From: a virus
Taxonomy: Duplodnaviria; Caudoviricetes
DNA length: 64,000 nucleotides
Direction: 5' to 3' (one strand)
IMG/VR virus record: IMGVR_UViG_3300014205_000200
Coordinates: 25,162 to 89,161 of that record
Under the pieces are notes generated by a model. That model was not told where the DNA came from, did not search any database, and worked only from the letters and a program-made list of their open reading frames with translations. This document shows positions 3 through 29,349 of this stretch, piece by piece. Both the position numbers and the translations under genes were made by a program. Numbering within the stretch: the first letter of the stretch is position 1; each line of letters starts with the position of its first letter.

Positions 3-398
3 GAAACGATGGAGGTCGACGCCGAAGAGATCCCCGGTCCGCGGTTCGTGAAGGTGTCGAGCGACGACGAGTTGCGGGCCGTCATGGCCGAGTTCGGCAA
101 CTTCCCGCAGCGTGAGCAGTACAGCCTGTTCGTCGAGTACCAGGCGTCGGTGGACGTGATCGACCCCGTGGCGGCCCGGCTGGGCGCGTTGGAGGCCGAG
201 GGCCTGCTGGCCGGCTGGGAGATCCTCCCCGACCGGTCCCGATCCGAGAAGACCGCCCGGGAGGCGGCCCAGGCGGCCAGCGGCCAGCAGACGACCGAGG
301 CGGCGTTGGTCGCCTACGTGGAGGCGATGGAGCTGCCGGCTGATGTGGACCGCGGCCGGGTGTTGGAGCTGAGCCGAGGCTTCCTGGCGGGAAGATAG
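3..398 (+). CDS. C-terminal part of probable SbcD/Mre11-like (T4 gp47-like) nuclease, 5' truncated by window edge
   Basis: Frame is open upstream of the ATG at 9; lies two genes before an SbcC-like ATPase. No catalytic motif visible, so the call is mainly from context. Confidence 0.5.
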   Translation, partial: ETMEVDAEEIPGPRFVKVSSDDELRAVMAEFGNFPQREQYSLFVEYQASVDVIDPVAARLGALEAEGLLAGWEILPDRSRSEKTAREAAQAASGQQTTEAALVAYVEAMELPADVDRGRVLELSRGFLAGR

Positions 399-403
399 CG
401 GGC

Positions 404-784
404 ATGAACAACATCTTGAGTCGGTGGGAGGACTGCCAGAAGGTCGCCGATGACACGGCCGACGAGTGCTCGTTCTGCCATGTGGGGTTTCAGACGGGCG
501 ACGTCTCGCTCCTGTTCGGCGAAGTGTCGGTCGCCCCGGCGGTTCGGTTCTACTGTTGCCCGACCTGCTATGCCCGGAAGGCCGAGTCGGAGCCGCTGAT
601 CCCCAGCGCGACGATGGTCTACGTCGAGAACCAACATCGCCGGCTCGACTTCGAGCAGTTGCCGCCGACCGTTCAGGACCACTTTGCGGAGGCGTTGGAG
701 ATCGTGGACCGGATCCACCAGGGCGTTGAGGAGTGGGTTCGGAAGAACCAGCTGGTGATTCCACCCGAAGGAGCGGTCAGTTGA
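404..784 (+). CDS. hypothetical protein with CxxC...CxxC (Zn-finger-like)
   Basis: CSFC and CPTC; GGGAAGAT box 7 nt upstream of ATG. Confidence 0.6.
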   Translation: MNNILSRWEDCQKVADDTADECSFCHVGFQTGDVSLLFGEVSVAPAVRFYCCPTCYARKAESEPLIPSATMVYVENQHRRLDFEQLPPTVQDHFAEALEIVDRIHQGVEEWVRKNQLVIPPEGAVS

Positions 785-2400
785 TCGTCACCGAAATCAA
801 AGTTGAGGGTTTTATGGGCCACCAGAAGGCCCGGGAGGTCCGGCTCCCCGACCGGGGGATCGTCGTGCTGGAGGGGCCGAACGGCTCGGGCAAGAGCGCG
901 CTGATCGAATCGGTCGCCACGGCGCTCTGGGGCGAGACGCTTCGGGGCGAGACGCCATGGCGGACCAAGGAGCCGGGCTCGGTCGAGGTGGTGGCGGACG
1001 GGATCGAGTTCCGCCGGTCGGTGACGAAGGCTGGCTCGAAGCGGGTTGAGGTCGTGACGGCGGACGGTGAGATTCGCCATTGGCCGACCGTCGGGAAGGC
1101 TCGCGAAGAGATCGAGGGCATGGTCGGCGCCTACGAGGTCTGGAAGAAGGTCTCGGTCTTCAGCTCGGACGACGTGTCGCGGTTCAGCACCGCCACCGAC
1201 GCCGAGCGGAAGCGGCTGTTGGAGGAGCTGCTCGGGTTGGACCGGTTCGACTTGGCGTTGGACCGCTGTCGGGCGGCCCTCAAGCAGGCGTCGGGGGTGG
1301 TGGATCGGATCCGAGCCGACCAGGCCCGGTTGTTGGCGGTGGCGGAGGGCCGGCGAGCCCGACTAGAAGACGCCCGGGCGGTGCTGGCCCGGGTGGGGGC
1401 GGTGCCGCACACCGATCCGGTTCGGTTGGCCGAATTGGAGGATGGCGCGTCGGAGCTTTCGGGCGCTCAGGCGGACGCGAGGGCGTTGGTATCCAGCTTC
1501 CATCAGAAGACCGGAGAGTCCCGGGGAAAGCTGCGGGCGCTGGAGGCCCGGTTGGCCGAGCTGGGCGACGACCGGTGCCCGACGTGCGAGCGGACGATGA
1601 AGGGAGCCGCCCCCCTGCTGGCGCGCCTGAGGGCTGAGCAGGGGGCGTTGGAGGTCCAGTTGAAGGACGAGACGGACGCGCTAGAGGCCGCCGAAGCGTC
1701 TTTCCTGAAGATCACCCGGCTGATCGAGGAAGATACGAATTCCCTTCGGGGGTTGCGCGAGGCCGCCCGGGTGGCGGAGGCGGCCCAGCGACAGATCGAC
1801 AGCGCCAAGGCGACGATCGAACGGCTGGAGGCCGAGCTGTCGGGCGGTCTTCAGGCGGAGGCCGATGCCGACCAGGCGTTGGCGGCGGTCGAGTCCGAGC
1901 GGGCCGAGCTACAGGCGACCGAGGTCGTGCTGGGGCTTCGGGGCGTTCGGGCGCAGGTGCTCGGGCGCGCGCTCGACGGCATCGAGTCTTTGGCGAATTC
2001 GCATCTGGCCAAGATCGCCATCGAGCCGGACTTCCGGATCCGGGTTCGTTCGACGTCCGAGCTGAAGTCGGGCCGGACGGTCGACACCCTGTCGGTCGAG
2101 GTCGAAGGTGTGGGGGGCGGCCACGGCTACCGGGCCTGTTCGACCGGCCAGCGACGCCGGATCGATGTCGCGCTCGTGCTGGCGTTCGCCCGAGTGTCGG
2201 AGTACGCGCACGCTCGACAGGGCGGGACGCTGTTCTTGGACGAGATGTTCGACGGTCTGGACGACTACGGGATCGGGGCCGTCGTGGAGGTACTGGTCGA
2301 AGTCGCGCGCGAGCGGCCGGTGGTGGTCGTGACCCACAACCCCGGGCTGGCTGGCCGGCTGCGGCCAGTGGCCAGCAGGCTGCTGGAGTTCGGCGCCTAG
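781..2400 (+). CDS. sbcC: SbcC/Rad50-like SMC-family ATPase (T4 gp46-like recombination exonuclease subunit)
   Basis: Walker A GPNGSGKS, coiled coils around a CPTC zinc hook, signature-like CSTGQRRR, Walker B LFLDE, H-loop VVTHN; start probably TTG 781 after GGAG. Confidence 0.9.
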   Translation: MIVTEIKVEGFMGHQKAREVRLPDRGIVVLEGPNGSGKSALIESVATALWGETLRGETPWRTKEPGSVEVVADGIEFRRSVTKAGSKRVEVVTADGEIRHWPTVGKAREEIEGMVGAYEVWKKVSVFSSDDVSRFSTATDAERKRLLEELLGLDRFDLALDRCRAALKQASGVVDRIRADQARLLAVAEGRRARLEDARAVLARVGAVPHTDPVRLAELEDGASELSGAQADARALVSSFHQKTGESRGKLRALEARLAELGDDRCPTCERTMKGAAPLLARLRAEQGALEVQLKDETDALEAAEASFLKITRLIEEDTNSLRGLREAARVAEAAQRQIDSAKATIERLEAELSGGLQAEADADQALAAVESERAELQATEVVLGLRGVRAQVLGRALDGIESLANSHLAKIAIEPDFRIRVRSTSELKSGRTVDTLSVEVEGVGGGHGYRACSTGQRRRIDVALVLAFARVSEYAHARQGGTLFLDEMFDGLDDYGIGAVVEVLVEVARERPVVVVTHNPGLAGRLRPVASRLLEFGA

Positions 2401-2404
2401 ACCG

Positions 2405-2704
2405 ATGCCGAAGCGGCCGACCGCCCCCGGGCAGCTGAGCCTCTTCAAGGAGACGACGATGAACGACGCATTACCGGCCCCCAACGGGGCTCAACCGATC
2501 CCAACCGAGGCGAAGGCGCAGGCCGCCCGGGACGCCAACCGGGCGCTGATGGACCGGTACGACCAGCAGAAGAAGTGCCTTCAGCGGTTCGTGATCCGCC
2601 TTATCGAAAGCGGGGTGGAGAACGGCCTGAGTTCCTCCGAAGTCGTGATCCTTCGCGAGGGCCTGGAGGTTCTGGGCTGGCTTCCACGGGACGTGAAGGT
2701 GTAG
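2405..2704 (+). CDS. hypothetical protein
   Basis: ORF packed between sbcC and the ParB-like gene. Confidence 0.55.
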   Translation: MPKRPTAPGQLSLFKETTMNDALPAPNGAQPIPTEAKAQAARDANRALMDRYDQQKKCLQRFVIRLIESGVENGLSSSEVVILREGLEVLGWLPRDVKV

Positions 2705-2714
2705 AAGATCCGAA

Positions 2715-3476
2715 ATGGCAGCCCGCAAGAAGAAGCCCGCCCCAGTGCCGACCGCACCCGAGATGAAGATCGTCCTGACGCCGCTCGAGGAACTGCAACG
2801 CTGGCCGAAGAATCCAAAGCTCCACGACTGGGACACCCTCGGGGCGTCGATCAAGCGATTCGGCTTCGTCCAGCCGCTGACGGTCGACGAGGGGACCGGT
2901 CGGTTGGTGGCGGGCCACGGTCGGCTCGACATGCTGGCCAAGATGAAGGAGGCCGGCGAGGACCCACCGCCCCGGGTGTTGGTCCGGGACGACGGCGCCT
3001 GGATGGTGCCGGTCATCCGGGGGATCCGGTTCGAGAGCGAGCGCGAGGCCCAGGACTACCTGCTGGTCGACAACCGGGCGGTCGAGCGCGGCGGATGGGA
3101 CGAAGGTCTGCTGGCCGCCATGCTGCAAGAGACCAGCAAGGTTGATGACGGTCTCCGGTCGGTCGGCTTTACCGAGAAGGAGTTGAAGAAGCTCCTGGAG
3201 GCGGTCGCCGAGGAGGCGCCGATCATCCGCGACGCCACCCCGCCCGAGATGCTGAAGGGCTACCTGGCGAACGACGTTCGGCGGATGATGCTCTACTTCC
3301 AGGGCGACGTTTACGAACGGGTGGTCGCCAAGCTGGAGGCCATCATGCACGCCAACCCGCAGCTGGAAGATCACACGGACGTCTTCAACTTCCTGTTGGC
3401 CCACTACGAGGCGACCGATGGAACGGATCCAGATCACCAAGTATCCAAGCGACGAGGGCTGGCTCCGGCATCGTAG
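2715..3476 (+). CDS. ParB/Srx N-terminal-domain protein (phage type)
   Basis: WPKNPKLH, SIKRFGFVQPL, LVAGHGRL, LLVDNR: typical ParB-N motif series. Confidence 0.8.
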   Translation: MAARKKKPAPVPTAPEMKIVLTPLEELQRWPKNPKLHDWDTLGASIKRFGFVQPLTVDEGTGRLVAGHGRLDMLAKMKEAGEDPPPRVLVRDDGAWMVPVIRGIRFESEREAQDYLLVDNRAVERGGWDEGLLAAMLQETSKVDDGLRSVGFTEKELKKLLEAVAEEAPIIRDATPPEMLKGYLANDVRRMMLYFQGDVYERVVAKLEAIMHANPQLEDHTDVFNFLLAHYEATDGTDPDHQVSKRRGLAPAS

Positions 3477-4018
3477 GGTCTCGGAGGACGACTACGATCT
3501 GGTGATCGACCGGCCGGCCGCCCTCTACGACGGCGACCAGCTGGTGGCCGTCTACCGGCCGCTCGACGGCGCGGCTTCGTTGATCCCGCTCCTGCGCACC
3601 GTCCGGTACCAGAATGCCCGGCAGCGTCTTCACGAGCGGGATCGTCAACCAGACGAGCGAGCTGACCTACCACTACGACGCCGGCAACTTCCACGGAGCG
3701 TGGAGCTGCATGATGGCGCTCAGCTACGACACGGAGGGTGGCAATCTGGTGTTCCCCGCCTACCGGATCGCCCTCAGCGTGGAGGAGAACCGGCTCTTCA
3801 TGTTCAACGGCTCGGAGCTGCTCCACGGCGTCAGCCACATCAAGAAGCGGACTTCACGCGCCTACCGGTACTCGATCGTCTTCTACGCCCTGGAGGCGAT
3901 GAAGCACTGCCTCGAGCCCTGCGAGGAGGTGAAGCGGGCCCGCCAGTCCGACATCGTCCGGGCCCGGCGGACCCCCGAGGAGCGGCTGGTGGCGTTACGG
4001 AGCGGGCGAAAGGGTTAG
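3418..4018 (+). pseudogene. TET/JBP-family 2OG-Fe(II) dioxygenase, split into two frames (apparent internal deletion plus frameshift near 3610-3614)
   Basis: C-terminal piece (3614-4018) has FTSGIVN, HYD (HxD), GGNLVFP, LLHGV (distal His) and RYSIVFY (RxS). The N-terminal piece (3418-3612, DYDLVIDRP...VAVY) is in another frame. Confidence 0.7.
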
Positions 4019-4019
4019 C

Positions 4020-4367
4020 ATGACGGCGATCTTCTACTTGTCGGACGTCCGGTACGGCGGATGGCCGACCTTCACCGCCCACCTGGCGCTCTCGCTCCAG
4101 CGCGCGGGCGACAATCCCCGGATCTACAAGATCGGCGCCACGACGGAGGGCCGGGCCCGGCCGTTCGGTCGGGGGTTGAACTACCGGAACCTGAAGCTCC
4201 CAGCCGCGGTGGAGATCTGCCGACAGATCCCCGCCATCGTGGCGGTGGCGGCGCCGAAGTTCATCGAACCGGCGGTCGCGCTCCTGGAGGCGGGCGCGAC
4301 GCTGGTGGTCCATGACCCGACCGAGTCCGGACGAGAACGCGCGTTCTCGGGGGTGCTGGTCGGGTAG
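4020..4367 (+). pseudogene. N-terminal fragment of a TET-associated glycosyltransferase-like gene
   Basis: FYLSDVRYGGWPTFTAHL and VVHDPTE resemble phage GTs that follow TET/JBP genes (from memory); only 115 aa, and the protein-like sequence ends at the palindrome at 4333. Confidence 0.55.
4333..4348. repeat. 16-bp palindrome GAGAACGCGCGTTCTC, copy 1
   Basis: exact match; extends to an 18-bp palindrome. Confidence 0.95.
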
Positions 4368-4404
4368 GGACCCGGGCGCCCCCGAGAACCGCCAGGAGGA
4401 TCGT

Positions 4405-4578
4405 ATGCCGAAGATGATCTACATGGTCCTGACCGACCCTCAATTCAACGTCTTGAGCGACGCCCTTCAGTCCGCCGTCGCCGGCATCGGCGCGGGGGGC
4501 GGCGACTTCGAGTGGTCTCCTCGGACGGAGCGGGTGGCGAGCGAGCTGGCGACGGGGTTCCGTCGCAGAAGGCGATGA
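4405..4578 (+). CDS. small hypothetical protein
   Basis: AGGAGG SD before ATG 4405. Confidence 0.55.
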   Translation: MPKMIYMVLTDPQFNVLSDALQSAVAGIGAGGGDFEWSPRTERVASELATGFRRRRR

Positions 4579-4760
4579 AGCCTGTCCGTGGCGCGGTCGT
4601 GGACCTGACCGGGTTGGAGATCCGAACGGTGCTGAAGGCAGCGGAAATCCTTCCGTTGATCGACCCGGACTTCGCCCTAGGTTTCTTCACCCCCACCGAA
4701 CGGGCGGCGTTCCGTCGGGCGCAGGGTGTGCTTCGAGCCGCCGCAAAGGAGTTGAAGTGA
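4575..4760 (+). CDS. small hypothetical protein
   Basis: start/stop overlaps with both neighbours. Confidence 0.5.
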   Translation: MKPVRGAVVDLTGLEIRTVLKAAEILPLIDPDFALGFFTPTERAAFRRAQGVLRAAAKELK

Positions 4761-5149
4761 TGCGGACCGTCAAGCTGACGATCGAGTTGGACCTCACGTA
4801 CGACGGGATGTCGGGCGTCCATCGGCGCGACATCATCGCGGCCGTCGACGACTACCTGGAGGGCAGCTTCCAGGAGAGCCTGAAGAAAGGCCTGGGCGCG
4901 CTCGCGACCCCGGCTCGGATCGGTCTCCGGATCCGGTCGTCCGAGGGGAAGATGGGGGGGCGAATGAAGGGCCCACGCTACCCACTCGAACTGACGGCGG
5001 CCGAGTATCACTACGTCCGGGCCTACGTGGAGGCCGAGCACGAGATCGGCATGACGAACCGCTCGTCGGACAAGTTGGTGGCCGGTCTGCTGGACAAGCT
5101 CCGGCGGGCGTGGTCCGCCGGGTCGTCGAGGCGGCGAAGCCGGAGGTGA
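4757..5149 (+). CDS. hypothetical protein (possibly two genes, second start ATG 4964)
   Basis: internal GGGAAGAT box at 4946-4953 before an in-frame ATG. Confidence 0.5.
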   Translation: MMRTVKLTIELDLTYDGMSGVHRRDIIAAVDDYLEGSFQESLKKGLGALATPARIGLRIRSSEGKMGGRMKGPRYPLELTAAEYHYVRAYVEAEHEIGMTNRSSDKLVAGLLDKLRRAWSAGSSRRRSRR

Positions 5150-5150
5150 A

Positions 5151-5537
5151 GTGGTGAACGACCAAGAAGAAGCGGCGCTCCTGCGAGAGCGTCTGCGTGA
5201 GACCACCCACGCGGCCGCCCGGGTGGCGGAGCAGCTGGCGGACGCCCAACGGGATGCGGAGCGCTATCAGGCCCGCTGTCGGGCGCTGGAGCTGCGGCTC
5301 GAGGCCGTCCAGCTGGCGATGAGCCCGAAGTACGACCAAGCGCGGCTCGGGCTCCACATGGCCCGGCCAGAGTGGTGGGAGGCGATCGACCGTCTGGTGG
5401 CCGGGCCGGTCGCCGAGCCGGTCGCCGAGCAGCCGACCCTCGGGTGCCTTCACCTGGCCGACAGCTGGACGCCGGCCTCTGACCTGAACGATGTGCCGTG
5501 CCCGGTGTGCGGGCGGTTCTACGTGGACGGGCCCTGA
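5151..5537 (+). CDS. hypothetical coiled-coil protein with C-terminal CPVC
   Basis: ORF with GGAGG upstream. Confidence 0.55.
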   Translation: MVNDQEEAALLRERLRETTHAAARVAEQLADAQRDAERYQARCRALELRLEAVQLAMSPKYDQARLGLHMARPEWWEAIDRLVAGPVAEPVAEQPTLGCLHLADSWTPASDLNDVPCPVCGRFYVDGP

Positions 5538-5540
5538 CCG

Positions 5541-6338
5541 ATGACCCGGCGGCTGGTCTTGTGGGAAGGCCGATCGTGGATCGACGACGCCCCGGTGGTG
5601 TTGATCGGCACCCGGGCGCTGTCGCCGAGCGTCGTGAACCGCAAGACAGGCGACATCGTCCACACGTGGATCCTTCGCTCGGACCGGCGGCCGGCCGAGG
5701 CCTGGCGTGAGGGGCAGGACGCTTCGGTGTGCGGCGACTGCAAGCTGCGGGGCGATCCCGAGGACCCGGGGTCGCGGTCCTGCTACGTCCACCTGGGCCA
5801 CCTGGGGAACCTGTGGAACGCCTACCGGGCCGGTTCGATCCCCTACCTGACGGAGGACCGCCAGCTGGCCGGTCTGGTGGGCGGCCGGGTGGTGCGGATC
5901 GGCAGCTACGGTGACCCGCTCGTCCTTCCGTTCGACGTCATCCGGACCATCATCAGCCCGGCCCGGGCCCACATCGGCTACACGCACCTCTGGCGTCACC
6001 CGGGCGCCCGGGGGAAGCGTCACTATCGGCAGCTCCTGATGGCGTCGGTCGACACCGAAGCCGAGCAGGTGGCCGCCCGGGCGGCCGGGTGGCGGACCTT
6101 CCGGACGACCTTCCGTTCGTTCGGCGCCCCGAAGGAGCCGCCGCTCGGGGACGAGATCGTCTGCCCGGCGTCCGACGAGGCTGGTCACCTGTCGACCTGC
6201 GAGCGCTGTCGGCTCTGCAACGGCGTCCAGAAGCCCCGCCACGGCGTGGCGGACCGGCGGCGCAGCATCGTCATCCAGGCCCACCACAGCCCCAACGCCT
6301 ACGCGACGATGCGGTCCCGGTTGGCGATCGTCCGGTAG
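5541..6338 (+). CDS. Cys-rich conserved phage protein, possibly Fe-S/radical-SAM-like
   Basis: CGDC...CYV, RIGSYGDP, GYTH, MASVD, CPAS...CERCRLC clusters; function not established. Confidence 0.45.
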   Translation: MTRRLVLWEGRSWIDDAPVVLIGTRALSPSVVNRKTGDIVHTWILRSDRRPAEAWREGQDASVCGDCKLRGDPEDPGSRSCYVHLGHLGNLWNAYRAGSIPYLTEDRQLAGLVGGRVVRIGSYGDPLVLPFDVIRTIISPARAHIGYTHLWRHPGARGKRHYRQLLMASVDTEAEQVAARAAGWRTFRTTFRSFGAPKEPPLGDEIVCPASDEAGHLSTCERCRLCNGVQKPRHGVADRRRSIVIQAHHSPNAYATMRSRLAIVR

Positions 6339-6357
6339 CGGGGGGAAGATGGGCGTG

Positions 6358-6609
6358 ATGACGAACCCACCCACCACCCCAGAACCACCGGTCGAGCCGG
6401 CCCGACCTTCCTTCGAGGTCGCGCTCGCGGCCCTGCTGAATCACTACAGTCGGGAGACCGAGAGCGGCACGCCGGACTTCATCCTCGCCACCTACCTGAA
6501 CGACTGCCTGGCGGCCTTCAGCGTCGCGACCCGGGAGCGGACCCGCTGGTACAACCAGTCCGGGACCGAGCTGGGGGTGCCGGAGACCCGGACCGAGCCG
6601 GCCCGATGA
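6358..6609 (+). CDS. hypothetical phage protein
   Basis: LLNHYSRETESGTPDFILATYL; GGGAAGAT box 7 nt upstream. Confidence 0.6.
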   Translation: MTNPPTTPEPPVEPARPSFEVALAALLNHYSRETESGTPDFILATYLNDCLAAFSVATRERTRWYNQSGTELGVPETRTEPAR

Positions 6610-6818
6610 TCGTCACCGTCCTGTTGATCCTGTCGGTCGCCAGCTACTCGCTGCTGATGATGTGGATCGGTCGCCAGCTGGCCCTCTACGAGGAGCAGGA
6701 CCGGGTCGTCGTCTTCTTGAACCGGATGGCGCGCGAGCATGACCGCGACGGCACGACCCGGTCGGCCTCGCTCCTCCGGGAGGCGGCGAACCGGATCGGC
6801 GGCGAGCAGCACCGGTGA
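6606..6818 (+). CDS. small membrane protein
   Basis: N-terminal hydrophobic helix IVTVLLILSVASYSLLMMWI. Confidence 0.55.
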   Translation: MIVTVLLILSVASYSLLMMWIGRQLALYEEQDRVVVFLNRMAREHDRDGTTRSASLLREAANRIGGEQHR

Positions 6819-7039
6819 GAACGCGCGTTCTCGCCTCGGGGGAACGCGAGCCGGTCAGCTGTCCGGTTTGCCTCGGACCGATGCCGACCCGGTCGCTCAT
6901 GTGTCGGGCCTGCGGGCGGTCGTACGACCGATCGGCCCACCGGGAGGGTTCGGTCGCGGAGGTGATCCGGTGGGCGGCCGGCCGGTCTCGGCGGGCCGAG
7001 CGGGAAGCAGCTGGGCGTGGGGTGGGTGTGCCGCGATGA
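6815..7039 (+). CDS. small Zn-finger-like protein
   Basis: CPVC...CRAC. Confidence 0.45.
   Translation: MRTRVLASGEREPVSCPVCLGPMPTRSLMCRACGRSYDRSAHREGSVAEVIRWAAGRSRRAEREAAGRGVGVPR
6817..6832. repeat. 16-bp palindrome copy 2
   Basis: exact match overlapping the TGA of the preceding gene. Confidence 0.95.
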
Positions 7040-7135
7040 GGCGAAGTGCCTTGAGGAGATCTGGGGCATCGGCTTCGAGAAGGTCTCGGTGACGGAGCTC
7101 GGAAGCGAGGGCCTCGCGGCCCAGAAGGGGAAGCG

Positions 7136-7342
7136 ATGATGAAGTTCACAGCGGAGATCTACATGGAGACCCGGCGATGCCGTGCGTGCGGCCGGTGGTG
7201 GGCGCTGGAGGACGGCGCTGGAGGCGATTGCCCTAAGTGCAAGAGCGCCTACGTGGATGGCCTGCGCGAGCAACTCAAGGCAGCTCGCCGCACGAACGCC
7301 GGCCTGAAGGGCGCCTTGGCCCGGGCGAAGGGGAAGCGATGA
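7136..7342 (+). CDS. small Zn-ribbon/coiled-coil protein
   Basis: CRAC...CPKC. Confidence 0.6.
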   Translation: MMKFTAEIYMETRRCRACGRWWALEDGAGGDCPKCKSAYVDGLREQLKAARRTNAGLKGALARAKGKR

Positions 7343-7542
7343 AGATCACGGAGGCGATGCTCAACGATCTGCGGACGGCGGTCCGCGATGGACGACCATG
7401 CGTGTTGGACCCGGAGGAGGTGCTGGCCCTCCTCGACGAGCGGAAGGCGCTTCGGGAGGCGGTGCGTTCGTGGCGAGACCAATGCGGGATCACGCAGGAC
7501 GAGGGGTCCGTCGCCCTCGCCCTCGGGGAGGACGAATCATGA
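7339..7542 (+). CDS. hypothetical protein
   Basis: ATGA overlaps on both sides. Confidence 0.5.
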   Translation: MKITEAMLNDLRTAVRDGRPCVLDPEEVLALLDERKALREAVRSWRDQCGITQDEGSVALALGEDES

Positions 7543-7700
7543 GCGGAGCGAAGACGGGTGCGGCTGGCCTGGCCCTGCAAAAGGTCGAGGCATTGGAGAA
7601 GCGCGTAGCGGGGCTGGAGCAGCGCCTGGCGCGGTACGAACTCGCCTCGCTGGAGCGGACGGAGCGGCGCGTAGCGGAGAGAGAGGCGGGCCGAGCCTAG
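7539..7700 (+). CDS. small coiled-coil protein
   Basis: ATGA overlap; heptad-like sequence. Confidence 0.5.
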   Translation: MSGAKTGAAGLALQKVEALEKRVAGLEQRLARYELASLERTERRVAEREAGRA

Positions 7701-7831
7701 GCCGGTAGTCGGTCCTATCCCTGCGGGTTACGTGTTGTGGAATGGAGAAGCACGAGGCACGGTTGGAAGCCTGGCAGCGCGACCGGAGCGGGGTTGGCCG
7801 GCCGGTGGAAGTGGCGAAGGAGTAGTTATCC

Positions 7832-8635
7832 GTGCTGACGATTGGATCTCTCTTTGCCGGCATCGGCGGGCTTGAGCTCGGGCTCGAGTGGGCCGGGGTC
7901 GGCGAGACCCGCTGGCAGGTGGAGATCGATCCGTACTGCCGGCGTGTCCTTGAGCGGCACTGGCCCCAGGCGGAGCGCTTCGAGGATGTGACCGCGTTCG
8001 GCGGTCGGCCGGCAGACCTGATCTGTGGCGGGTTCCCGTGCCAGGACCTGTCAGTCGCCGGGAAGCAGAAGGGGATCGACCATGGAGAACGATCGGGGCT
8101 CTGGCGCGAGTTTGAGCGTGTCGTGGGGGCAGTCCGGCCAGGGTGGGTGGTCGTGGAGAACGTTGCCCACACTTGGCGAAAGTGGGTGCCCCGTGTGCGG
8201 AGCGATCTGCACCGGCTCGGATATGCCAGCGTGCCGCTTCGAGTGCGAGCCAGTGACGTCGGGGCGTGGCACGAGAGGTCCCGGGTCTTCGTTGTTGCCG
8301 ACGCTCACGGCATCCTCCTACGGGAGCAACAAGGGCGGCGGGGCGGCGGGGCGCCTTGGGGTGGAGCGCTTGAGCTTGCAGTCGCTCGCGCGAAGGGGGC
8401 TGATACCGACCCTCACTCGACACGCCGCCACGAAGGGGGCGGGGGAGTCACGGTTTCGCGAGGGCGGCCCCAGCCTCAACACGGTGATCGGTGGTGGGCC
8501 TCTGAGCCCGATGTGGCTCGAGTGGTTCATGGGCTTCCCGGACGGGTGGACCGAGCCGCCGCCCTAGGAAACGCGGTGGTGCCTCAGGCTGCGATGGCGG
8601 TGGGGCACTTCATTCAGAGCATGCGAGAAGACTGA
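7832..8635 (+). CDS. dcm: C5 cytosine DNA methyltransferase (alpha polypeptide)
   Basis: motif I FAGIGG, II-III EIDPY/FEDV, IV GGFPCQDLS, VI VVENV, VIII HERSRVFVVA, X LGNAVVP; no recognisable motif IX. Confidence 0.9.
   Translation: MLTIGSLFAGIGGLELGLEWAGVGETRWQVEIDPYCRRVLERHWPQAERFEDVTAFGGRPADLICGGFPCQDLSVAGKQKGIDHGERSGLWREFERVVGAVRPGWVVVENVAHTWRKWVPRVRSDLHRLGYASVPLRVRASDVGAWHERSRVFVVADAHGILLREQQGRRGGGAPWGGALELAVARAKGADTDPHSTRRHEGGGGVTVSRGRPQPQHGDRWWASEPDVARVVHGLPGRVDRAAALGNAVVPQAAMAVGHFIQSMRED
8025..8567 (+). CDS. probable methyltransferase beta polypeptide (motif IX) nested in an alternative frame
   Basis: LLPTLTAS, LIPTLT and C-terminal LSPMWLEWFMGFPDGWT resembling motif IX; true start uncertain. 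Confidence 0.65.
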   Translation: MAGSRARTCQSPGSRRGSTMENDRGSGASLSVSWGQSGQGGWSWRTLPTLGESGCPVCGAICTGSDMPACRFECEPVTSGRGTRGPGSSLLPTLTASSYGSNKGGGAAGRLGVERLSLQSLARRGLIPTLTRHAATKGAGESRFREGGPSLNTVIGGGPLSPMWLEWFMGFPDGWTEPPP

Positions 8636-8655
8636 CTTCGCCACGCAAGGAGGGG

Positions 8656-8892
8656 TTGATGGCTAAGCGGATGTACCTGATTCGGGTTGAAGTTGGCGAT
8701 ACGCCTCCGTCGGAGTGTGGGGCGTGCCCATGGTTGCATCACGAGATCGACTGGTCGGCGCACTGCGGCGTCTTGAAGCAGAAGGTAGCCAACGGCGAGC
8801 CCGGGCGGCTACCAACCGGCCCAAGGCTTCAAGAGTGTGTCGATTCAGAGTGGGCCTATCTTGAGCACGGCGGCGAGACGTCTGAGGTTTGA
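8656..8892 (+). CDS. small Cys-rich hypothetical protein
   Basis: AAGGAGG SD; CGAC, C, C; visibly lower GC. Confidence 0.55.
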   Translation: MMAKRMYLIRVEVGDTPPSECGACPWLHHEIDWSAHCGVLKQKVANGEPGRLPTGPRLQECVDSEWAYLEHGGETSEV

Positions 8893-8917
8893 TATTCGCC
8901 ACGATGAAGGAGGAGCG

Positions 8918-9139
8918 ATGGACACGCAAGCTCGGATAAACATCCTTTGGGGTGACAACCTGAACGACCTCAAGAGCACGCACCGAACGATGATGCACGT
9001 TCTTGATGCAATGATGGGCGAAATCCGCGAACTTCGGGCCGAGGTTGAGACCCTCAAGAAGTGCGGCCAGTCGTTCTCCCTTCATCGCGCGATCCTCATC
9101 TTCTCAACGGTTCTCAGTAGACCCCTAGCGCAGATCTAG
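8918..9139 (+). CDS. hypothetical protein
   Basis: AAGGAGG SD before ATG 8918. Confidence 0.5.
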   Translation: MDTQARINILWGDNLNDLKSTHRTMMHVLDAMMGEIRELRAEVETLKKCGQSFSLHRAILIFSTVLSRPLAQI

Positions 9140-9470
9140 GTCCCGCGTGCGCTGCGTTAGCGTGTGATTGCCGCTGAAACTGAAAGTCCACCGGAAGCCC
9201 CGTGACCGATGACAACCACATCGAGTAGGCAACGCACATCAGCGACCACCGGGTGGTGTCGACAGGGAACAACTGATCGAAATCCCCATCCTCAAGAATC
9301 AGTCGAACGTCGACGTCCCGGAATGTCCGGCGCTCCAGCGCCGACCCAACAAGGAAGCAACCAAGCCCCCCATGCGCGCGGTTGATCGTCGCGCAAGCCA
9401 GATCTAGGCTGAAGGCATTAGGGGCCGGCAGCCAATCCCTCCGCCAGGACGGCTTCTCTTCTTCACTCAT
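9114..9470 (-). CDS. minimal nucleotidyltransferase-like protein (only convincing minus-strand gene)
   Basis: FLVGS...RDVDVRLI fits the pol-beta superfamily hG[GS]x(n)DhDh pattern; GGAG SD on the minus strand. Confidence 0.55.
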   Translation of the reverse strand: MSEEEKPSWRRDWLPAPNAFSLDLACATINRAHGGLGCFLVGSALERRTFRDVDVRLILEDGDFDQLFPVDTTRWSLMCVAYSMWLSSVTGLPVDFQFQRQSHANAAHAGPRSALGVY

Positions 9471-9779: not shown

Positions 9780-9797
9780 CGAGGGAAGATTCAGGGC

Positions 9798-19696: not shown

Positions 19697-20022
19697 AACG
19701 CGAAGAGCTTCGTGACCCGATCGATCGGTTGTTGGCCTGGTTCTATCGCCGGCAGATCGAGGCCGGAGAGGTGACGTTGATGTTCTCCGGGGATCTTCGG
19801 CAGCTCGTCGGGATGGCGTTGGACCTGACGACGATGCCGGAGGACGGCCCGGCCCGCCCCGGGCGGGAGGTCACCACCCGATGGTTGATCGTCGGGGCCG
19901 TTCCGGCATCCTCGAAGGTCGAGCTGGAGTCGATCCCGAAGTGGCGAGGCCGCTACTGGCGGCTCCGGTGGGCGGTTCGGCAGCGGTGGGCCGATGCCCG
20001 GGCCCGGTTCGCTCGTGAGTGA
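19693..20022 (+). CDS. hypothetical protein
   Basis: ATGA overlap. Confidence 0.5.
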   Translation: MKREELRDPIDRLLAWFYRRQIEAGEVTLMFSGDLRQLVGMALDLTTMPEDGPARPGREVTTRWLIVGAVPASSKVELESIPKWRGRYWRLRWAVRQRWADARARFARE

Positions 20023-20245: not shown

Positions 20246-20415
20246 GCCCGGTCCGCGGCTGGAGGCAAGGCTCCGCCCGGGGCTGCAGGTCGTCTCGGGG
20301 GATCCGGGTTGCCCGCTTGGGGCCCGGCCGGGCGCCGGACAGGGTGGGACCGCTGAGGAGCCGGGCCCGGGGTCCCTGAGGCTGGCGAACCGGCGGGCCG
20401 CCCGGCCGGGTAGCC

Positions 20416-20495
20416 CAACCCCGAGTAGCCCTCCGGTTTTGACGATTGGTACGATTTCGGTTTTACGGAAACGATTTCGGCGCTATGCTCTCTTT
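20416..20495 (+). promoter_or_regulatory. 80-bp leaderless promoter module, copy 1
   Basis: CAACCCCGAG...ACGATTGGTACGATTTCGGTTTTACGGAAACGATTTCGGCGCTATGCTCTCTTT then ATG; TTTACG-N16-TATGCT-N6-ATG. Confidence 0.9.
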
Positions 20496-20750
20496 ATGAA
20501 CCGAACGCTGCACCTCGAAGGCTACGAACCGAATTTCGCCGGGCTCGACTCCTGGGCGTTTCACACGCGGAAGGCCGAGAACGCTCGAATCGAGATCGCC
20601 CACTTCAAGGGCCGGCTCGAGGAAGAGTACGCCAACCAGCGGGCCCGGGTGCCGGGGGCCGGCCGGATGATCCAGCTGGTGCTGCTGAAGCTGGCCAGCG
20701 CGCACGAGGCGGCGGCCGATGCCGAGGAGGCGCTGGCTTGGTTGAGCTAG
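20496..20750 (+). CDS. 84-aa probable early protein
   Basis: ATG follows the module directly. Confidence 0.7.
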   Translation: MNRTLHLEGYEPNFAGLDSWAFHTRKAENARIEIAHFKGRLEEEYANQRARVPGAGRMIQLVLLKLASAHEAAADAEEALAWLS

Positions 20751-21700: not shown

Positions 21701-22132
21701 ATGAAGACGTACGGGTACAACGGGCTGGCGGGGTGCGTGGCGCAGGTGAAGAACCGGGAGACCGGCCGGCTGGTGGGCCTTTACCGTAACGACCAGGCCG
21801 ATCTCGACGACGATGACGGTGCGTGGTCGACCGTCTGCGAGCCGCACGGGATGCTGGTCAACCACGCGACGCTCGCGCTCGCCAGGAGCCACCTGGCGGC
21901 CCCGGGCGATTGGTGTGAGGACTGTGCCGCGCTCGCTCGCGATGGACAGGTGGCGGACGGGACGGTGTCGGTCACGTCGACCGCGCCCGAGAAGGCTCTT
22001 GAGTTCTGCCGGACGCGGCTCGGGATCTCGCCGGCCCGGATCGGGCGCCTGACGGACGCCGGCCCGGTGTCGCTCCCCGGCTTTCCGCCCGGCACCCGCC
22101 GGTTCGTCATCAGCCTGGTCGAGCGCGCCTGA
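21701..22132 (+). CDS. hypothetical protein
   Basis: GGAGG SD; VCEPHG...WCEDC. Confidence 0.6.
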   Translation: MKTYGYNGLAGCVAQVKNRETGRLVGLYRNDQADLDDDDGAWSTVCEPHGMLVNHATLALARSHLAAPGDWCEDCAALARDGQVADGTVSVTSTAPEKALEFCRTRLGISPARIGRLTDAGPVSLPGFPPGTRRFVISLVERA

Positions 22133-22138
22133 GGACCG

Positions 22139-22213
22139 CAACCCCGGGCCACCCTCCGGCTTCTACGATTGGTACGATTTCGGTTTTACGGCCTCCGACT
22201 TCGGAGGTATGAT
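22139..22213 (+). promoter_or_regulatory. variant promoter module (copy 2) with hairpin spacer and no downstream ORF
   Basis: TTTACG (22185-22190), 17-nt spacer containing CCTCCG-ACTT-CGGAGG, TATGAT (22208-22213). Confidence 0.75.
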
Positions 22214-22298
22214 GGGGGGTCAGGTTGGTTCCCGTTCGTCGCCAGGCGGCCCGGCTCGCCCGGGCGGATCCGGGCCCGGGCGGTCGCCCCCCGGGTCC

Positions 22299-22378
22299 CA
22301 ACCCCGAGCAGCGCTCCGGCTTCGACGATCGTTACGATTTCGGCTTTACGAGAACCATTTCGGCGCTATGCTCTCTTT
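22299..22378 (+). promoter_or_regulatory. 80-bp leaderless promoter module, copy 3
   Basis: same layout with several substitutions; ATG at 22379. Confidence 0.9.
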
Positions 22379-22561
22379 ATGAAGAACGAAGTGCGAGTCG
22401 AGACGGTTCGAATCATCCTCACCGAGGAGCAGAAGAAGGCGATTGCCTTCGGCGAGGACGTCATCCTGGCCTACTGGAAGACGGTCAACACGGCCAAGGG
22501 TCGCCGGATGGTCAAGAGCGTCGAGAAGAAGCTCTACTACATGCGGCTCGGGCTGGCCTAA
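22379..22561 (+). CDS. 60-aa probable early protein
   Basis: ATG follows the module directly. Confidence 0.7.
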   Translation: MKNEVRVETVRIILTEEQKKAIAFGEDVILAYWKTVNTAKGRRMVKSVEKKLYYMRLGLA

Positions 22562-22664: not shown

Positions 22665-22710
22665 CGATCCGGGCCGGCCGGTTGGGGGACCTTGGGGGAG
22701 GCCGTTCCTA

Positions 22711-22790
22711 CAACCCCGAGCGACCCTCCGGCTTTGACGATTGGTACGATTTCGGTTTTACGGAAACGATTTCGGCGCTATGCTCTCTTT
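22711..22790 (+). promoter_or_regulatory. 80-bp leaderless promoter module, copy 4
   Basis: near-identical to copy 1; ATG at 22791. Confidence 0.9.
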
Positions 22791-23042
22791 ATGAAGAGCA
22801 AGTGGGGCAACGAGAAGCGAGAGCGAGAGAACGGCCGGTTCGCGGTGTCGGAGGCGTGCGACTGCTGTGGCAAGGGGACCGGTCGGGATTACTGCACCGA
22901 CGATGAGGTCTGCGGTGGCACGGACGGCCCGGGGTTCTTTCTCTGTGCCCGGGCACGGTGCCGGGCGAAGGTTGAGGGCCTGGGGGTCGAGGAGCGGCGG
23001 GTGCTCTACACGGCCCAGCGGGCGGCGAACCGGGCCCGCTAG
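22791..23042 (+). CDS. 83-aa Cys-rich probable early protein
   Basis: CDCC, C, C, CARARC. Confidence 0.7.
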   Translation: MKSKWGNEKRERENGRFAVSEACDCCGKGTGRDYCTDDEVCGGTDGPGFFLCARARCRAKVEGLGVEERRVLYTAQRAANRAR

Positions 23043-23724: not shown

Positions 23725-23804
23725 CGGTCCCGGGCGGTCCGCCGGGCCCGGTCGGCAGCATGCTATCGGGGGCGGTGGGCCGACGCCGTGGGACCGCCGG
23801 GTCC

Positions 23805-23884
23805 CAACCCCGAGCGACCCTCCGGTTTTGACGATTGGTACGATTTCGGTTTTACGGAAACGATTTCGGCGCTATGCTCTCTTT
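23805..23884 (+). promoter_or_regulatory. 80-bp leaderless promoter module, copy 5
   Basis: near-identical to copies 1 and 4; ATG at 23885. Confidence 0.9.
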
Positions 23885-24163
23885 ATGAAGAACGAAGTGG
23901 TCAGCGAGGCGGTAAAGGTGTGCAGCGAGGCGGTTCGGGCGATTGACGCCCTCCGCGCCAGTGAGCGGTTCACCCCGTTCGCGGGTTGGTACCGGGGCGA
24001 CCACGCGAAGGCCCGGACGGCGGTCCGCCGGGCGGTCGAGGCGGTCGAGGCGATCGCCAGCTCGGAGGAGGAGAAGGAGCTGTGCCGCCTCTTCCTGGCG
24101 GCTCTTCGGAAGAAGGCTCCGCTCCCCGGTGAGCTTCGGGCCGCGCTCGTGAGGGAGGTCTAA
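23885..24163 (+). CDS. 92-aa helical probable early protein
   Basis: ATG follows the module; starts MKNEV like the 22379 product. Confidence 0.7.
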   Translation: MKNEVVSEAVKVCSEAVRAIDALRASERFTPFAGWYRGDHAKARTAVRRAVEAVEAIASSEEEKELCRLFLAALRKKAPLPGELRAALVREV

Positions 24164-25895: not shown

Positions 25896-26275
25896 TCGCC
25901 GAGGACGTGCGGGGGTTCTTGCGACGGAATCGGGGCGAGTGGTCGACGACCGAATTGTGGGCCGAGTTCGACTTCAGGGTCTCGAGGGACGGGCTCTGCG
26001 ATTCCCTGGCGAGGTTGGAGCGGGCCGGCCTGGTCGCCCGGCAACTCAGCCCGGGTGGCAAACATCCCTACCGATGGTCCTCGACCGAAGCCGACACCCG
26101 GCCGCCGCTTACGCACGATCTCCATCCAGCGGACGGTCGCACGCGGGAGCAGGTGTGGGATTCGATCCAGCGTTTTTGCGACCGTCTCCGGGCCGCTACT
26201 GGCGTGGTCGATGTTCGTGAGGGGAAGATGGCGTCGGATGAAGACAAGCCTGAGCGTAGAGGGGCCGACGGTTGA
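25892..26275 (+). CDS. winged-helix DNA-binding protein
   Basis: STTELWAEF...LCDSLARLERAGLV...YRW. Confidence 0.55.
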   Translation: MIAEDVRGFLRRNRGEWSTTELWAEFDFRVSRDGLCDSLARLERAGLVARQLSPGGKHPYRWSSTEADTRPPLTHDLHPADGRTREQVWDSIQRFCDRLRAATGVVDVREGKMASDEDKPERRGADG

Positions 26276-26946: not shown

Positions 26947-27756
26947 ATGTCGATCCCGATCAAGCTCGCCCCCCTACCGCTATGGACCGACCGTTGGGAC
27001 GAAGCGGCCCTGAGGGAACGGCATCGTCGCAACCCTCGCCAGTTCGCCCGGGGGTTCTTCATGCAGGCGATGGTCGACGGCGAGAACACGTTTCCGTCGT
27101 TCGAGAAGTGCCGCCAGCCGGGCCTAGTGCTCGGCGATCTGATCCGCAATAGCTGGCCCTGCTTCACGGGCGTGGACCTGTCGTCGACCAAGCGACCCGG
27201 AAACGCGATCGTCACCGTCAAGCTCGACCCGATCCAGAAGCGACGCTTCCCGGTCGACATTCGGTTCGGGCGCTGGCGATCGAACGAGCTGTGCGAGGCC
27301 ATCCAGCAGGTCAACAACCAGTTCCACCCGGCCGTCATCATGGTCGAGAACAACGGCTACCAGGAGTCGCTGATCGACTGGGTGGGCGACCAGAAGAACC
27401 GGTTCGACTTTTGGATGAAGGTCGAACCGACCACCACCACGAGCGGCACCAAGGCCCACGCCGACATCGGGCTCCCCGGTTTGGAGGTGGAGTTCGCCCA
27501 CGGTGCCTGGTCGATCCCCTATTCGGAGTACGAGCACCTGACGGGCGGGGAGGGGATCGGTGCCACGAACGAGGACGAGGACGAAGAGGACGGCGCGCCC
27601 GGAACGCTGCACTCCGACTGGCGGGCCCGCCAGTGGGCCCGATGGGACTATGAGTTTCGCCATCACCCGATGGCGGCCACCAACGACGGCGTGATGGCGA
27701 CCTGGTTCGCCCGGCAGGGGATCGAGCTATATAGCGGCTACCTCCAGCCCGGGTGA
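26947..27756 (+). CDS. terL: terminase large subunit, C-terminal RNase H-like nuclease domain as a separate gene
   Basis: begins with linker-like PLWTDRW...F..FMQ; then GVDLS, VENNGYQ, GLPGLEVEF, TNDGVMATWFA; upstream in-frame stop at 26851-26853. Confidence 0.8.
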   Translation: MSIPIKLAPLPLWTDRWDEAALRERHRRNPRQFARGFFMQAMVDGENTFPSFEKCRQPGLVLGDLIRNSWPCFTGVDLSSTKRPGNAIVTVKLDPIQKRRFPVDIRFGRWRSNELCEAIQQVNNQFHPAVIMVENNGYQESLIDWVGDQKNRFDFWMKVEPTTTTSGTKAHADIGLPGLEVEFAHGAWSIPYSEYEHLTGGEGIGATNEDEDEEDGAPGTLHSDWRARQWARWDYEFRHHPMAATNDGVMATWFARQGIELYSGYLQPG

Positions 27757-27770
27757 GAACGCGCGTTCTC
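27755..27770. repeat. 16-bp palindrome copy 8
   Basis: exact match overlapping the TGA of TerL-C; GGGAAGAT box shortly after. Confidence 0.95.
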
Positions 27771-28285: not shown

Positions 28286-28728
28286 GTCCGGTCTTCGACC
28301 TCACGCACGCGCTCACGCTCTGGCGCCCGGTCGCGAGCGCGATGGTGCACGGGCCGAAGCAGATCGAGAACCGGGGTTGGGCGCCCCCGATGAAGTTCCT
28401 CGATCGTCGGATCTGGATCCACGCCGGATTGCGGTGGGACGAGCCGCTCGCCGACTTCGTGAGGGCCCGATGGCCCGAGGTCGACCAGACGCCGAACCCG
28501 GGCGGCTACATCATTGGGCACGCCCGGATCGCCGGGTGGGTGTGGCGCGAGAAGGAGCCGAAGGTCGTCGGTCTGGCGACGCCGGATCTGATCGACTCGC
28601 CGTGGTTCATCGGGCCCTACGGCTGGCTGCTGACCGAACGAACGCCGTTGTACCGGCCGGTGCCGGCTCAGGGACATCAGAAGCTTTGGCTGGTTGATGC
28701 CGCCACTAGGGCGCGATGCCGCCACTAG
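28282..28728 (+). CDS. ASCH-domain protein
   Basis: ALTLWRPVASAMVHGPKQIENRGW, IWIHAG, GPYGWLL, AQGHQKLW. Confidence 0.8.
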   Translation: MSPVFDLTHALTLWRPVASAMVHGPKQIENRGWAPPMKFLDRRIWIHAGLRWDEPLADFVRARWPEVDQTPNPGGYIIGHARIAGWVWREKEPKVVGLATPDLIDSPWFIGPYGWLLTERTPLYRPVPAQGHQKLWLVDAATRARCRH

Positions 28729-28733
28729 GGCGC
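28696..28733 (+). repeat. 19-bp tandem duplication
   Basis: GATGCCGCCACTAGGGCGC x2. Confidence 0.9.
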
Positions 28734-28782
28734 GGCTTCCAGCTTGGTTGACGGTCTGTCGGCTATCTGGTCTTGATGGCGC

Positions 28783-29334
28783 GTGGACGTCGTCAACAAC
28801 GACCGGGTGTCGCTCTCGAGCCCCCAGGTGGTCGAGTTGGAGATCCTGGTCGCGTCCGACGCGCCTTTCACCTACCAGGTCACGCTGCCGACGCCGGTCA
28901 ACGGCGGCTCCCGAACGTTCTCGGTCGAGACCGGCGCCGATCCGCTGACGACCGACGAGGTGGCGGCCCTGTTGGAGACGGTTCTGTTCAACGAGCAGAC
29001 CCCCTACGCGGTCTCGCGCGCGGGCCCGGTCATCGTCTTGGTCGGTCCGCTCGGCTTCACCTTCGAGGCGCAGCCGGGCGATCGGCTGGAGGCCCGGGTG
29101 GTGTCGGTTGGCTATAGCGGCCAGGACCTGTCGACCGGCCGGCAGATCGGGACCTGCAAGGTGATCGAGTGCCGGAACCTGTCGACCGGTCGGATGCGGC
29201 AATACTACACGCGCGACCGCGACGGAGTGGTGCTCTATCGGTGGGACGTCCTTCTCCAAGAGGAGAACACGTCCAACTATTTCGAGGTTCAGGCGGACCA
29301 GATCCTGACCCTAATCGAGAGCGCTCCCTTCTGA
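28783..29334 (+). CDS. hypothetical beta-rich protein, possibly virion-associated
   Basis: composition resembles the structural genes. Confidence 0.55.
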   Translation: MDVVNNDRVSLSSPQVVELEILVASDAPFTYQVTLPTPVNGGSRTFSVETGADPLTTDEVAALLETVLFNEQTPYAVSRAGPVIVLVGPLGFTFEAQPGDRLEARVVSVGYSGQDLSTGRQIGTCKVIECRNLSTGRMRQYYTRDRDGVVLYRWDVLLQEENTSNYFEVQADQILTLIESAPF

Positions 29335-29349
29335 CGGGAAGATGGGGCT

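Follow-up and report, generated by a model that had tools for sequence, protein, structure and literature searches.

The start-associated sequence (SAS) was described in Cluster K mycobacteriophages (GGGATAGGAGCCC; PMC3203893) and in Cluster EF Microbacterium phages (GGGAAAGGACCCC; PMC7302621). In these descriptions it is a near-invariant motif of 13 bp that starts with GGGA and is located 3–9 bp before the starts of 10–19 non-structural genes. ATG is the preferred start codon, a subset of the copies has an upstream inverted repeat, and a stop codon sometimes falls within the motif (PMC3203893, PMC7302621). Papers of 2024 and 2025 call its role unknown (PMC11373665, PMC12699233), and the repeat of the extended start-associated sequence (ESAS) is described as now thought to contain a SigA-like promoter (PMC11373665). 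Here we analyse an octamer of comparable layout, GGGAAGAT, termed the G box, in a phage of the Caudoviricetes represented by the IMG/VR record IMGVR_UViG_3300014205_000200. The analysed stretch, referred to as the window, comprises 64,000 nucleotides and corresponds to bases 25,162–89,161, the last 64 kb of the genome, in this single-contig record of 89,161 bp with 66.7% G+C. Coordinates refer to the window unless genome positions are indicated.

Promoters made of one element offer another comparison, and the T4 late promoters, which are read by gp55, are among them. The promoters recognised by the sigma factor gp36 of phage phiEco32 are described as a single element, tAATGTAtA, with the transcription start site (TSS) 6–8 bp downstream (PMC8948821). 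In Mycobacterium (PMC4633059), Deinococcus deserti (PMC4007540) and Caulobacter (PMC4117421), leaderless genes are reported to carry a -10 element of the form TANNNT 6–7 nt before the ATG or GTG, and mycobacterial leaderless translation is reported to require one of these two start codons (PMC4633059). Small phage proteins that are not sigma factors are also described as shifting the host polymerase to promoters that lack a -35 element. Examples are T4 AsiA and gp39 of the Thermus phage P23-45, which displaces sigma region 4 and favours extended -10 middle and late promoters (PMC7403470).

An invariant octamer ahead of DNA-metabolism genes

GGGAAGAT was found 18 times in the window, whereas 1.98 copies are expected (standard deviation 1.36, maximum 6, in 100 dinucleotide-preserving shuffles), and 15 of the copies lie on the plus strand at 389–29343. 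The whole 89-kb genome includes 27 exact copies. Twenty of them, all within genome positions 7.3–54.5 kb, are followed 6–8 nt downstream by an ATG or GTG start codon, and none by TTG. Nineteen of these start-associated boxes precede open reading frames (ORFs) of 66–756 amino acids (aa) and one (17377) precedes a coupled mini-ORF. The boxes are located at genes for DNA metabolism (replication, recombination and nucleotide metabolism), and none lies ahead of a virion gene, that is, of anything from 30.3 kb on. GGGAAGAT is a start-associated regulatory octamer of the middle (DNA-metabolism) genes of this phage, and its occurrence is far beyond chance. Whichever mechanism holds, the DNA-metabolism genes behind the 20 sites are marked as co-regulated, and the boxes settle where these genes start.

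Seven of the start-associated boxes are found upstream of the window. One of these is on the minus strand, before a leftward gene for a Dam-like methylase, and at genome 7.3–7.7 kb two divergent operons both begin with a box-led gene, one on each strand. The other seven of the 27 copies are not associated with starts. Three lie in late genes, and four lie in the sense orientation in the early/middle region, against about 0.8 by chance when the shuffle rate of the window is scaled to one strand of the 50-kb early/middle region, which makes this figure an estimate. These four copies suggest that the box need not touch a start codon. The copies in the window, and two non-start copies upstream of it, are as follows; distances are from the box to the start codon.

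389–396, plus strand: G box; ATG 404 (7 nt) of a 126-aa ORF upstream of an SbcC-like gene; the final T of the box opens the TAG stop of an SbcD-like gene
4946–4953, plus strand: G box within a gene of 130 aa; at 10 nt lies ATG 4964, an internal methionine in the frame of that gene; not clearly start-associated
6343–6350, plus strand: G box; ATG 6358 (7 nt) of an 83-aa ORF
9783–9790, plus strand: G box directly behind a TGA stop; ATG 9798 (7 nt) of a 103-aa DUF6283 protein
12902–12909, plus strand: G box 2 nt past a 16-bp palindrome (12884–12899); ATG 12916 (6 nt), 116 aa
13781–13788, plus strand: G box, an exception, in frame within ORF 13595–14017; no start 6–12 nt downstream
14410–14417, plus strand: G box 20 nt past a palindrome with one mismatch (14374); ATG 14426 (8 nt) of a DUF3310 protein
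15264–15271, plus strand: G box; ATG 15279 (7 nt), 71 aa
16364–16371, plus strand: G box behind a TAG stop; GTG 16378 (6 nt) or ATG 16381 (9 nt), 72 aa
17377–17384, plus strand: G box 2 nt past a palindrome (17359–17374); ATG 17392 (7 nt) of a 7-codon mini-ORF
17392–17415: mini-ORF; its TGA and the GTG (17412) of a 70-aa gene overlap, and the latter gene has a GAGGGAG Shine-Dalgarno (SD) site of its own
17957–17964, plus strand: G box in the 3' end of gene 17621–18019; ATG 17973 (8 nt) of a 129-aa ORF, with a 47-nt overlap
18366–18373, plus strand: G box behind a TGA stop; ATG 18381 (7 nt) of a ThyX-like thymidylate synthase
26222–26229, plus strand: G box; ATG 26238 (8 nt), 137 aa
27780–27787, plus strand: G box 9 nt past a palindrome (27755–27770); ATG 27794 (6 nt) of a 163-aa protein
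29336–29343, plus strand: last start-associated G box, behind a TGA stop; ATG 29350 (6 nt) of a 122-aa zinc-ribbon-like protein, with the late genes next
38071–38078, plus strand: copy within a late gene, no start after it; consistent with chance
49870–49877, minus strand: antisense copy in a late gene; consistent with chance
51513–51520, minus strand: antisense copy in a late gene; consistent with chance
Genome 4709, minus strand: non-start copy that shares bases with a leftward gene's TAG stop, 36–126 nt before an Acb2/Tad1-like gene
Genome 17083: non-start copy inside an ORF ahead of the polymerase gene, about 140 nt before coding potential in the polymerase frame begins

The arrangement at 17392–17415 suggests translational coupling or a leader peptide, and the 163-aa protein at 27794 matches a PHROG family annotated as cysteine dioxygenase. 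An initial annotation of the window had listed 12 GAAGAT copies before credible ORFs, and all 12 were recovered with an ATG or GTG 6–8 nt after the T, ORFs of 71–331 aa and a positive coding score. The three exceptions that it named (4948, 17379 and 13783) were also as described, namely an internal methionine at 10 nt, a mini-ORF and no start. Its remark that no copy was noticed after 30 kb was slightly inexact, as the three late-gene copies listed above show, none of them start-associated.

For an alignment we used 22 copies, the 20 start-associated ones and two whose starts lie at 10 and 12 nt; the octamer is invariant in it by selection. The start codon is 6 nt from the box at 5 sites, 7 nt at 11, 8 nt at 4, and 10 and 12 nt at one site each. 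The two bases 3' of the octamer are G in 15 and 19 of the 22 copies, and GGGAAGAT is usually followed by GG, while the five bases 5' of it are weakly S/R-rich. Conservation is confined to about -5 to +10 around the octamer. No -35-like element was detected, there being no conservation at -25 to -6.

The genome includes 90 variants of the octamer with one mismatch, of which six lie 4–11 nt before a possible start, all six inside larger genes. GAAGAT without the GG prefix is present in 80 copies, and only one of them looks start-associated (TAGAAGAT, 5 nt before a ParB-like gene at 2715), which shows that the preceding G run matters. As mismatched and prefix-less copies are rarely found at starts, the functional unit is the exact octamer. 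Two candidate explanations of the motif were rejected. The ATG contained in GGGAAGATG was considered as the true start, but the G is absent in 7 of 22 sites and the ATG is out of frame in 8. A T7-like promoter ending in GGGA was also considered; no upstream conservation was found, and no phage RNA polymerase in the Pfam search.

Promoter, translation element or operator

The reading that we prefer, and that is best supported although we put it slightly below an even chance, is that GGGAAGAT would be a middle promoter specific to this phage, made of a single element without a -35 and giving leaderless mRNAs. An as yet unrecognised phage factor would redirect host RNA polymerase to it, or the polymerase would carry an alternative sigma factor. 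The A and the T of GAAGAT, at which the DNA would melt, would correspond to positions -11 and -7; position -12 would have G instead of T, and position -14 another G. Transcription would start 7–9 nt past the T of the box, at or beside the ATG or GTG, and would yield leaderless or nearly leaderless mRNAs of the DNA-metabolism genes. The phage would then use three tiers of signals, with -35/-10 promoters abutting ATGs for early genes, G boxes for middle genes and TANNNT boxes for late genes. Promoter action on DNA, the position of the TSS and the existence of a factor are what we infer here. The wider proposal, of an almost entirely leaderless three-tier programme with an undescribed G-at--12 octamer promoter and a reprogramming factor without detectable similarity to sigma, is conceivable, and we regard it as doubtful. 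If the box is a promoter, it is a compact 8-bp signal without a -35 element in which the first hexamer base breaks the TANNNT rule, and it implies that some phage factor turns the RNA polymerase of a GC-rich host to new targets.

The geometry of the box argues for a promoter, as the early and late boxes of the same phage also abut starts. An SD core (GGAG, GAGG or AGGA) at -18 to -4 was found in 3 of the 20 box genes, the background rate (726 of 5000 random positions), in 37 of 94 other genes and in 1 of 17 TANNNT genes. A scan for sigma-70-type promoters gave none in window positions 1–20000 and none in genome positions 1–20000, which leaves the middle region without another candidate promoter; the G box is the only recurrent motif in a region of about 37 kb without a sigma-70-like match. 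Position 1 of the hexamer GAAGAT is G in all copies; the A and the T that are flipped out by sigma-70-family factors are retained at positions 2 and 6. A further G is found two bases ahead of the hexamer, and behind it comes a GG(G) run; such a run after a -10 hexamer stabilises open complexes.

A number of observations weigh against a promoter. No match to a sigma factor, an RNA polymerase or a known transcription activator was obtained with Pfam (125 proteins, the genes as called), PHROGs (95 ORFs of the early/middle region, including manual additions and ORFs given an alternative start) or NCBIfam (48 proteins), and a relaxed Pfam search of 36 proteins with E up to 0.5 gave none of these either. 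The sigma factor for which the initial annotation had suggested a search of the rest of the genome was not found in these searches; a very divergent one may be present among the roughly 60 proteins of unknown function. The G at position 1 departs from the TANNNT rule (T1, A2, T6). A pyrimidine at -1, typical of start sites, is present at 13 of 22 box sites and at 15 of 17 TANNNT sites, four of which are repeat copies (Fisher p = 0.07). The modal spacing is 7 nt for the G box and 6 nt for TANNNT, so the two spacings, called equal in the initial annotation, are about equal and not identical. When the 22 nt ahead of each box-gene start are paired with a generic 16S rRNA 3' tail, which may differ from that of the host, the predicted energy averages -9.5 kcal/mol, while with the same tail other genes have a median of -8.7 and TANNNT genes a mean of -5.4 kcal/mol. 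A query of IMG/VR with the ThyX-like protein returned 78 loci at 26–58% identity, none of them box-enriched, and no early-region relative. The SAS motifs, the nearest look-alikes in print, are read as translational by their authors. The non-canonical -10 element for leaderless middle transcripts proposed in the initial annotation is partly supported: its geometry, its A2 and T6 and the missing SD core speak for it, but no sigma factor was found in the searches above and pyrimidines at -1 are not enriched.

The main rival, a possible explanation that we find doubtful, would make the box a start-associated translation element in the mRNA, similar to the SAS of Clusters K and EF. Long polycistronic RNAs would be made, and the octamer might, with no better prospects in our estimate, replace the SD sequence by pairing with the U-rich 3' end of 16S rRNA or by binding a ribosome-recruiting factor of phage or host. 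The layout agrees with the published SAS in the near-invariance, the GGGA start, the closeness to starts and the non-structural genes concerned (PMC3203893, PMC7302621). Pairing of GGGAAG with the six terminal bases of the generic tail is possible (-4.8 kcal/mol), GGGAAGAUGGGGG reaches -9.2 kcal/mol, equal to AGGAGG, and predicted tail pairing is not depleted at box genes. The indifference to a pyrimidine at -1 and the sigma factor missing from the profile searches are also what a translation element would lead one to expect. However, both published SAS consensus sequences have an SD core (PMC3203893) and the octamer has none; whereas an SD site is a degenerate complement of CCUCC, the octamer is invariant and pairs only with the U-rich end of the tail. 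In the best duplex GGAAG pairs with that U-rich end and the G run with CCUCC, which leaves the invariant A and T as bulges. The variable part is the run of Gs that pairs with CCUCC, with G in 11–19 of 22 sites per position, and it ends 1–3 nt ahead of the start codon. Taken together, the bulged invariant bases, the variable G run and the short gap fit pairing with rRNA poorly. The ATG formed by the box and a following G, 8–10 nt ahead of the real start, is out of frame in 8 of 22 sites, four sense-strand copies lack an adjacent start, and no consistent RNA structure displays the box (unpaired probability 0.53 against 0.47 in controls). The SAS itself, moreover, is a model whose own role the cited papers call unknown (PMC11373665, PMC12699233). 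The initial annotation had named action as an SD sequence as what would overturn its promoter; the box with its G-rich 3' flank is predicted to pair with the generic tail about as well as SD-led genes do, and it has no SD core, which leaves an SD-like role weakened and still standing as a rival. If the box is translational, it would be the first SAS-like element without an SD core and outside the known actinophage clusters, and would sharpen the question of SAS function.

Two further explanations are less probable. An RNA operator or cleavage site for a phage protein, either a translational repressor of replication mRNAs or a sequence-specific endoribonuclease, can be compared with T4 RegA and RegB, of which RegA targets genes for replication, recombination and nucleotide metabolism. 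The box genes belong to the same classes, the box overlaps the ribosome-binding region, and its exact conservation suggests reading by a protein over pairing with rRNA. We nevertheless judge this improbable, as no RegA-like, RegB-like or recognisable RNA-binding protein was found in the Pfam, PHROGs and NCBIfam searches, the copies have no common RNA structure, and the SD-less genes would remain without an initiation signal. That the box is a DNA site but not itself a promoter, serving as an activator or repressor site for promoters elsewhere or as a nicking or replication signal, is the least probable explanation and in our view a very slim one. Its invariant sequence and strand specificity would fit such a site, and weakly HTH-like proteins are encoded at genome 7403–7786, 10066–11112 and 24024–24422, but a fixed distance of 6–8 nt to starts at 20 sites is not expected of it and no partner promoter motif was found nearby. 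About as much probability as we give to the RNA operator or cleavage site is left unassigned.

Other boxes, repeats and genome context

The early boxes are contained in five copies of a 69–120-nt repeat:

20400–20524: early repeat copy
22123–22191: early repeat copy
22283–22407: early repeat copy
22695–22819: early repeat copy
23789–23913: early repeat copy

Four of the five read TTTACG-N16-TATGCT-N6-ATG and head small ORFs of 60–92 aa; their ATGs (20496, 22379, 22791 and 23885) are the starts picked independently by the coding-score model. A sixth, partial copy at genome 7350–7403 reads TTTACC-N17-TTATAA-N7-ATG at 7368–7403. These -35/-10 pairs look like early promoters of the sigma-70/SigA type for leaderless genes. 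The first leaderless early ORF (genome 7403–7786, plus strand) encodes a 128-aa orphan protein with weak matches to MerR/HTH_17 (E 0.05–0.09), whose only match among 5.8 billion protein clusters was itself. The box, or the palindrome described below, has in this protein a candidate regulator.

The late boxes are of the TANNNT type, which ends 6–9 nt before 11 called starts, mostly of late genes, against 0.63 expected (about 17-fold); at the other 37 offsets in the range 0–40 there are 10 against 5.9 expected. The spacing of the TANNNT-type boxes is 6 nt at 11 sites, 7 nt at two, 8 nt at one, 9 nt at two and 3 nt at one. Those found before virion genes are:

30282–30287: TAGATT
30831–30836: TAGCTT
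32958–32963: TATAGT, with a TTGCCA -35 element 18 nt upstream
41178–41183: TAGAGT
42870–42875: TAGCGT
43608–43613: TAGACT
47360–47365: TAGGAT
57057–57062: TAGGCT
57998–58003: TACAGT

In the only relative found, known from a 10.8-kb late-region fragment with 73% capsid identity, two orthologous late genes have, 5 and 6 nt ahead of their ATGs, TANNNT boxes that differ in sequence. Many other genes of this phage have ordinary SD sites of the GGAGG type.

The perfect 16-bp palindrome GAGAACGCGCGTTCTC is present in 12 exact copies and two with one mismatch:

Exact, window: 4333, 6817, 12884, 17359, 20754, 27755, 37061, 53895
One mismatch, window: 14374, 24849
Exact, upstream of the window: genome 5814, 10708, 12724, 19509

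Ten of the 14 copies lie directly behind or overlap the stop codon of a plus-strand gene, and the palindrome folds as a hairpin of 6–10 bp. Its role may be that of a terminator-like hairpin, or a dimeric DNA-binding protein may use it as operator. Four of the 20 boxes have GAGAACGCGCGTTCTC 2–20 nt upstream, 10 palindrome copies have no box, and no -35/-10 pair lies inside it. A palindrome with a box behind it would agree with a promoter placed after a terminator or operator.

Gene calling by a codon-usage model, for which the long ORFs of this genome served as training set, gave 127 genes. Matches to Pfam and PHROGs identified a family-B DNA polymerase, a DnaB-like helicase, a primase, UvrD-like and SNF2-like helicases, a RecA/UvsX-like recombinase, SbcCD-like nucleases, a ThyX-like enzyme and several DNA methyltransferases, as well as an Acb2/Tad1-like protein, an Amidase_2 lysin, a portal, a Mu-F-like protein and a baseplate-J protein. 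No tRNA genes were found. Features of some of these genes are listed here:

Genome (L001) 7749–10025: SNF2-like helicase, containing an intein with an HNH domain
L002:6483–8738: RecA/UvsX-like recombinase, containing a Hint/LAGLIDADG intein
Window 3418–4015, 7832–8632 and 18381–19373, and L001:3538–4317 and 6416–7330: genes of DNA-modification type (a Tet/JBP-like dioxygenase fragment, ThyX-like and at least three methyltransferases)

The DNA of the phage may be modified by its own enzymes, which could affect promoter recognition. The large terminase appears to be split, with ORFs 11964–12854 and 26947–27753, about 14 kb apart, matching the same PHROG large-terminase family at different profile positions (270–471 and 486–628). 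Three consecutive genes of about 330 aa at 53958–56913 share a common 70-nt segment with a period of 983–986 nt, and appear to be tandem paralogues in the tail/baseplate region.

Searches for relatives gave few matches. Megablast with 8 kb against 50,697 phage records had no match, and tblastn of the portal against the same collection gave 26–29% matches at best, to Ralstonia and Komagataeibacter phages only. The UvrD-like helicase matched 82 phage records, the top matches being phages of Gram-negative hosts, with no actinophage in the 25 records listed or in the 10 organism names tallied. As a host clue, an endolysin query of a protein atlas returned only generic amidase clusters. In IMG/VR, the capsid query found only the 10.8-kb late-region fragment, which has 0 boxes, and the portal query found no relative, nor did polymerase and portal queries of metagenome contigs.

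A pattern scan of IMG/VR with GAGAACGCGCGTTCTC gave 15 loci with at most two per contig, and a scan with GGGGGAAGATGGGG gave at least 117 single matches. An ATG or GTG at 6–8 nt was found in 6 of the 80 GGGGGAAGATGGGG loci listed, which is about chance. About 30 of these 80 loci have one conserved context, T[AG]GCGTAT..GA before and GG.GAATA after, and represent a conserved family of sequences from other viral contigs that is unrelated. A generalised box, G-N-GA-N-GAT, had at most two start-proximal copies per locus in the other-phage loci L003–L097. A full-text literature search for the octamer gave nothing on phage regulation among the matches listed.

Comparison with known systems

The G box resembles the SAS, as far as the cited accounts describe it, in being near-invariant and asymmetric, in its GGGA start, in its single orientation a few bases before non-structural starts, in the preference for ATG, in the upstream stop that sometimes falls in the motif and in the inverted repeat above a subset of copies. 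It differs in that its invariant part is 8 bp and not 13, its spacing is 6–8 nt and it has no SD core; despite the common layout, the box therefore fails one defining SAS feature. In contrast to the ESAS repeat as described (PMC11373665), the palindrome here is perfect and 16 bp long, stands without a box at 10 places and has no -35/-10 pair inside it. Neither megablast or tblastn of the phage collection nor the helicase matches listed gave any sequence relationship to actinophages, and the same phage has clear -10 boxes at a similar distance from other starts. A DUF3310 protein has been speculated to act on SAS genes (PMC11373665). The phage has a DUF3310 protein of its own, itself behind a G box (14426), which we record as a coincidence only.

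Compared with the phiEco32 and T4 single-element promoters, the G box is likewise one conserved element (8 bp, theirs 8–9 bp) without a -35 element and in many copies, and the 6–8 bp between the box and the expected start site correspond to those reported for phiEco32. It differs from the phiEco32 element, as published, in being G-rich with G in place of the -10 T and in that no phage sigma factor is detectable. The predicted start site would moreover coincide with the start codon. The leaderless promoters of bacteria, in the form reported, have the same geometry, with A2 and T6, ATG or GTG only and no SD core. The G box differs from them in its first base, in the invariance of all eight bases where TANNNT is degenerate, and in the missing enrichment of pyrimidines at -1.

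The P23-45 promoters described are, as the G box would be, independent of a -35 element and used after the early ones, but they have a standard -10 hexamer with a TG extension, and a gp39 homologue was not detected here. By analogy with gp39 and AsiA, a small non-sigma phage protein that redirects the host polymerase would account for the failure to find a sigma gene. The G box belongs among known kinds of element, phage-private one-box promoters or the SAS, and is not a new category.

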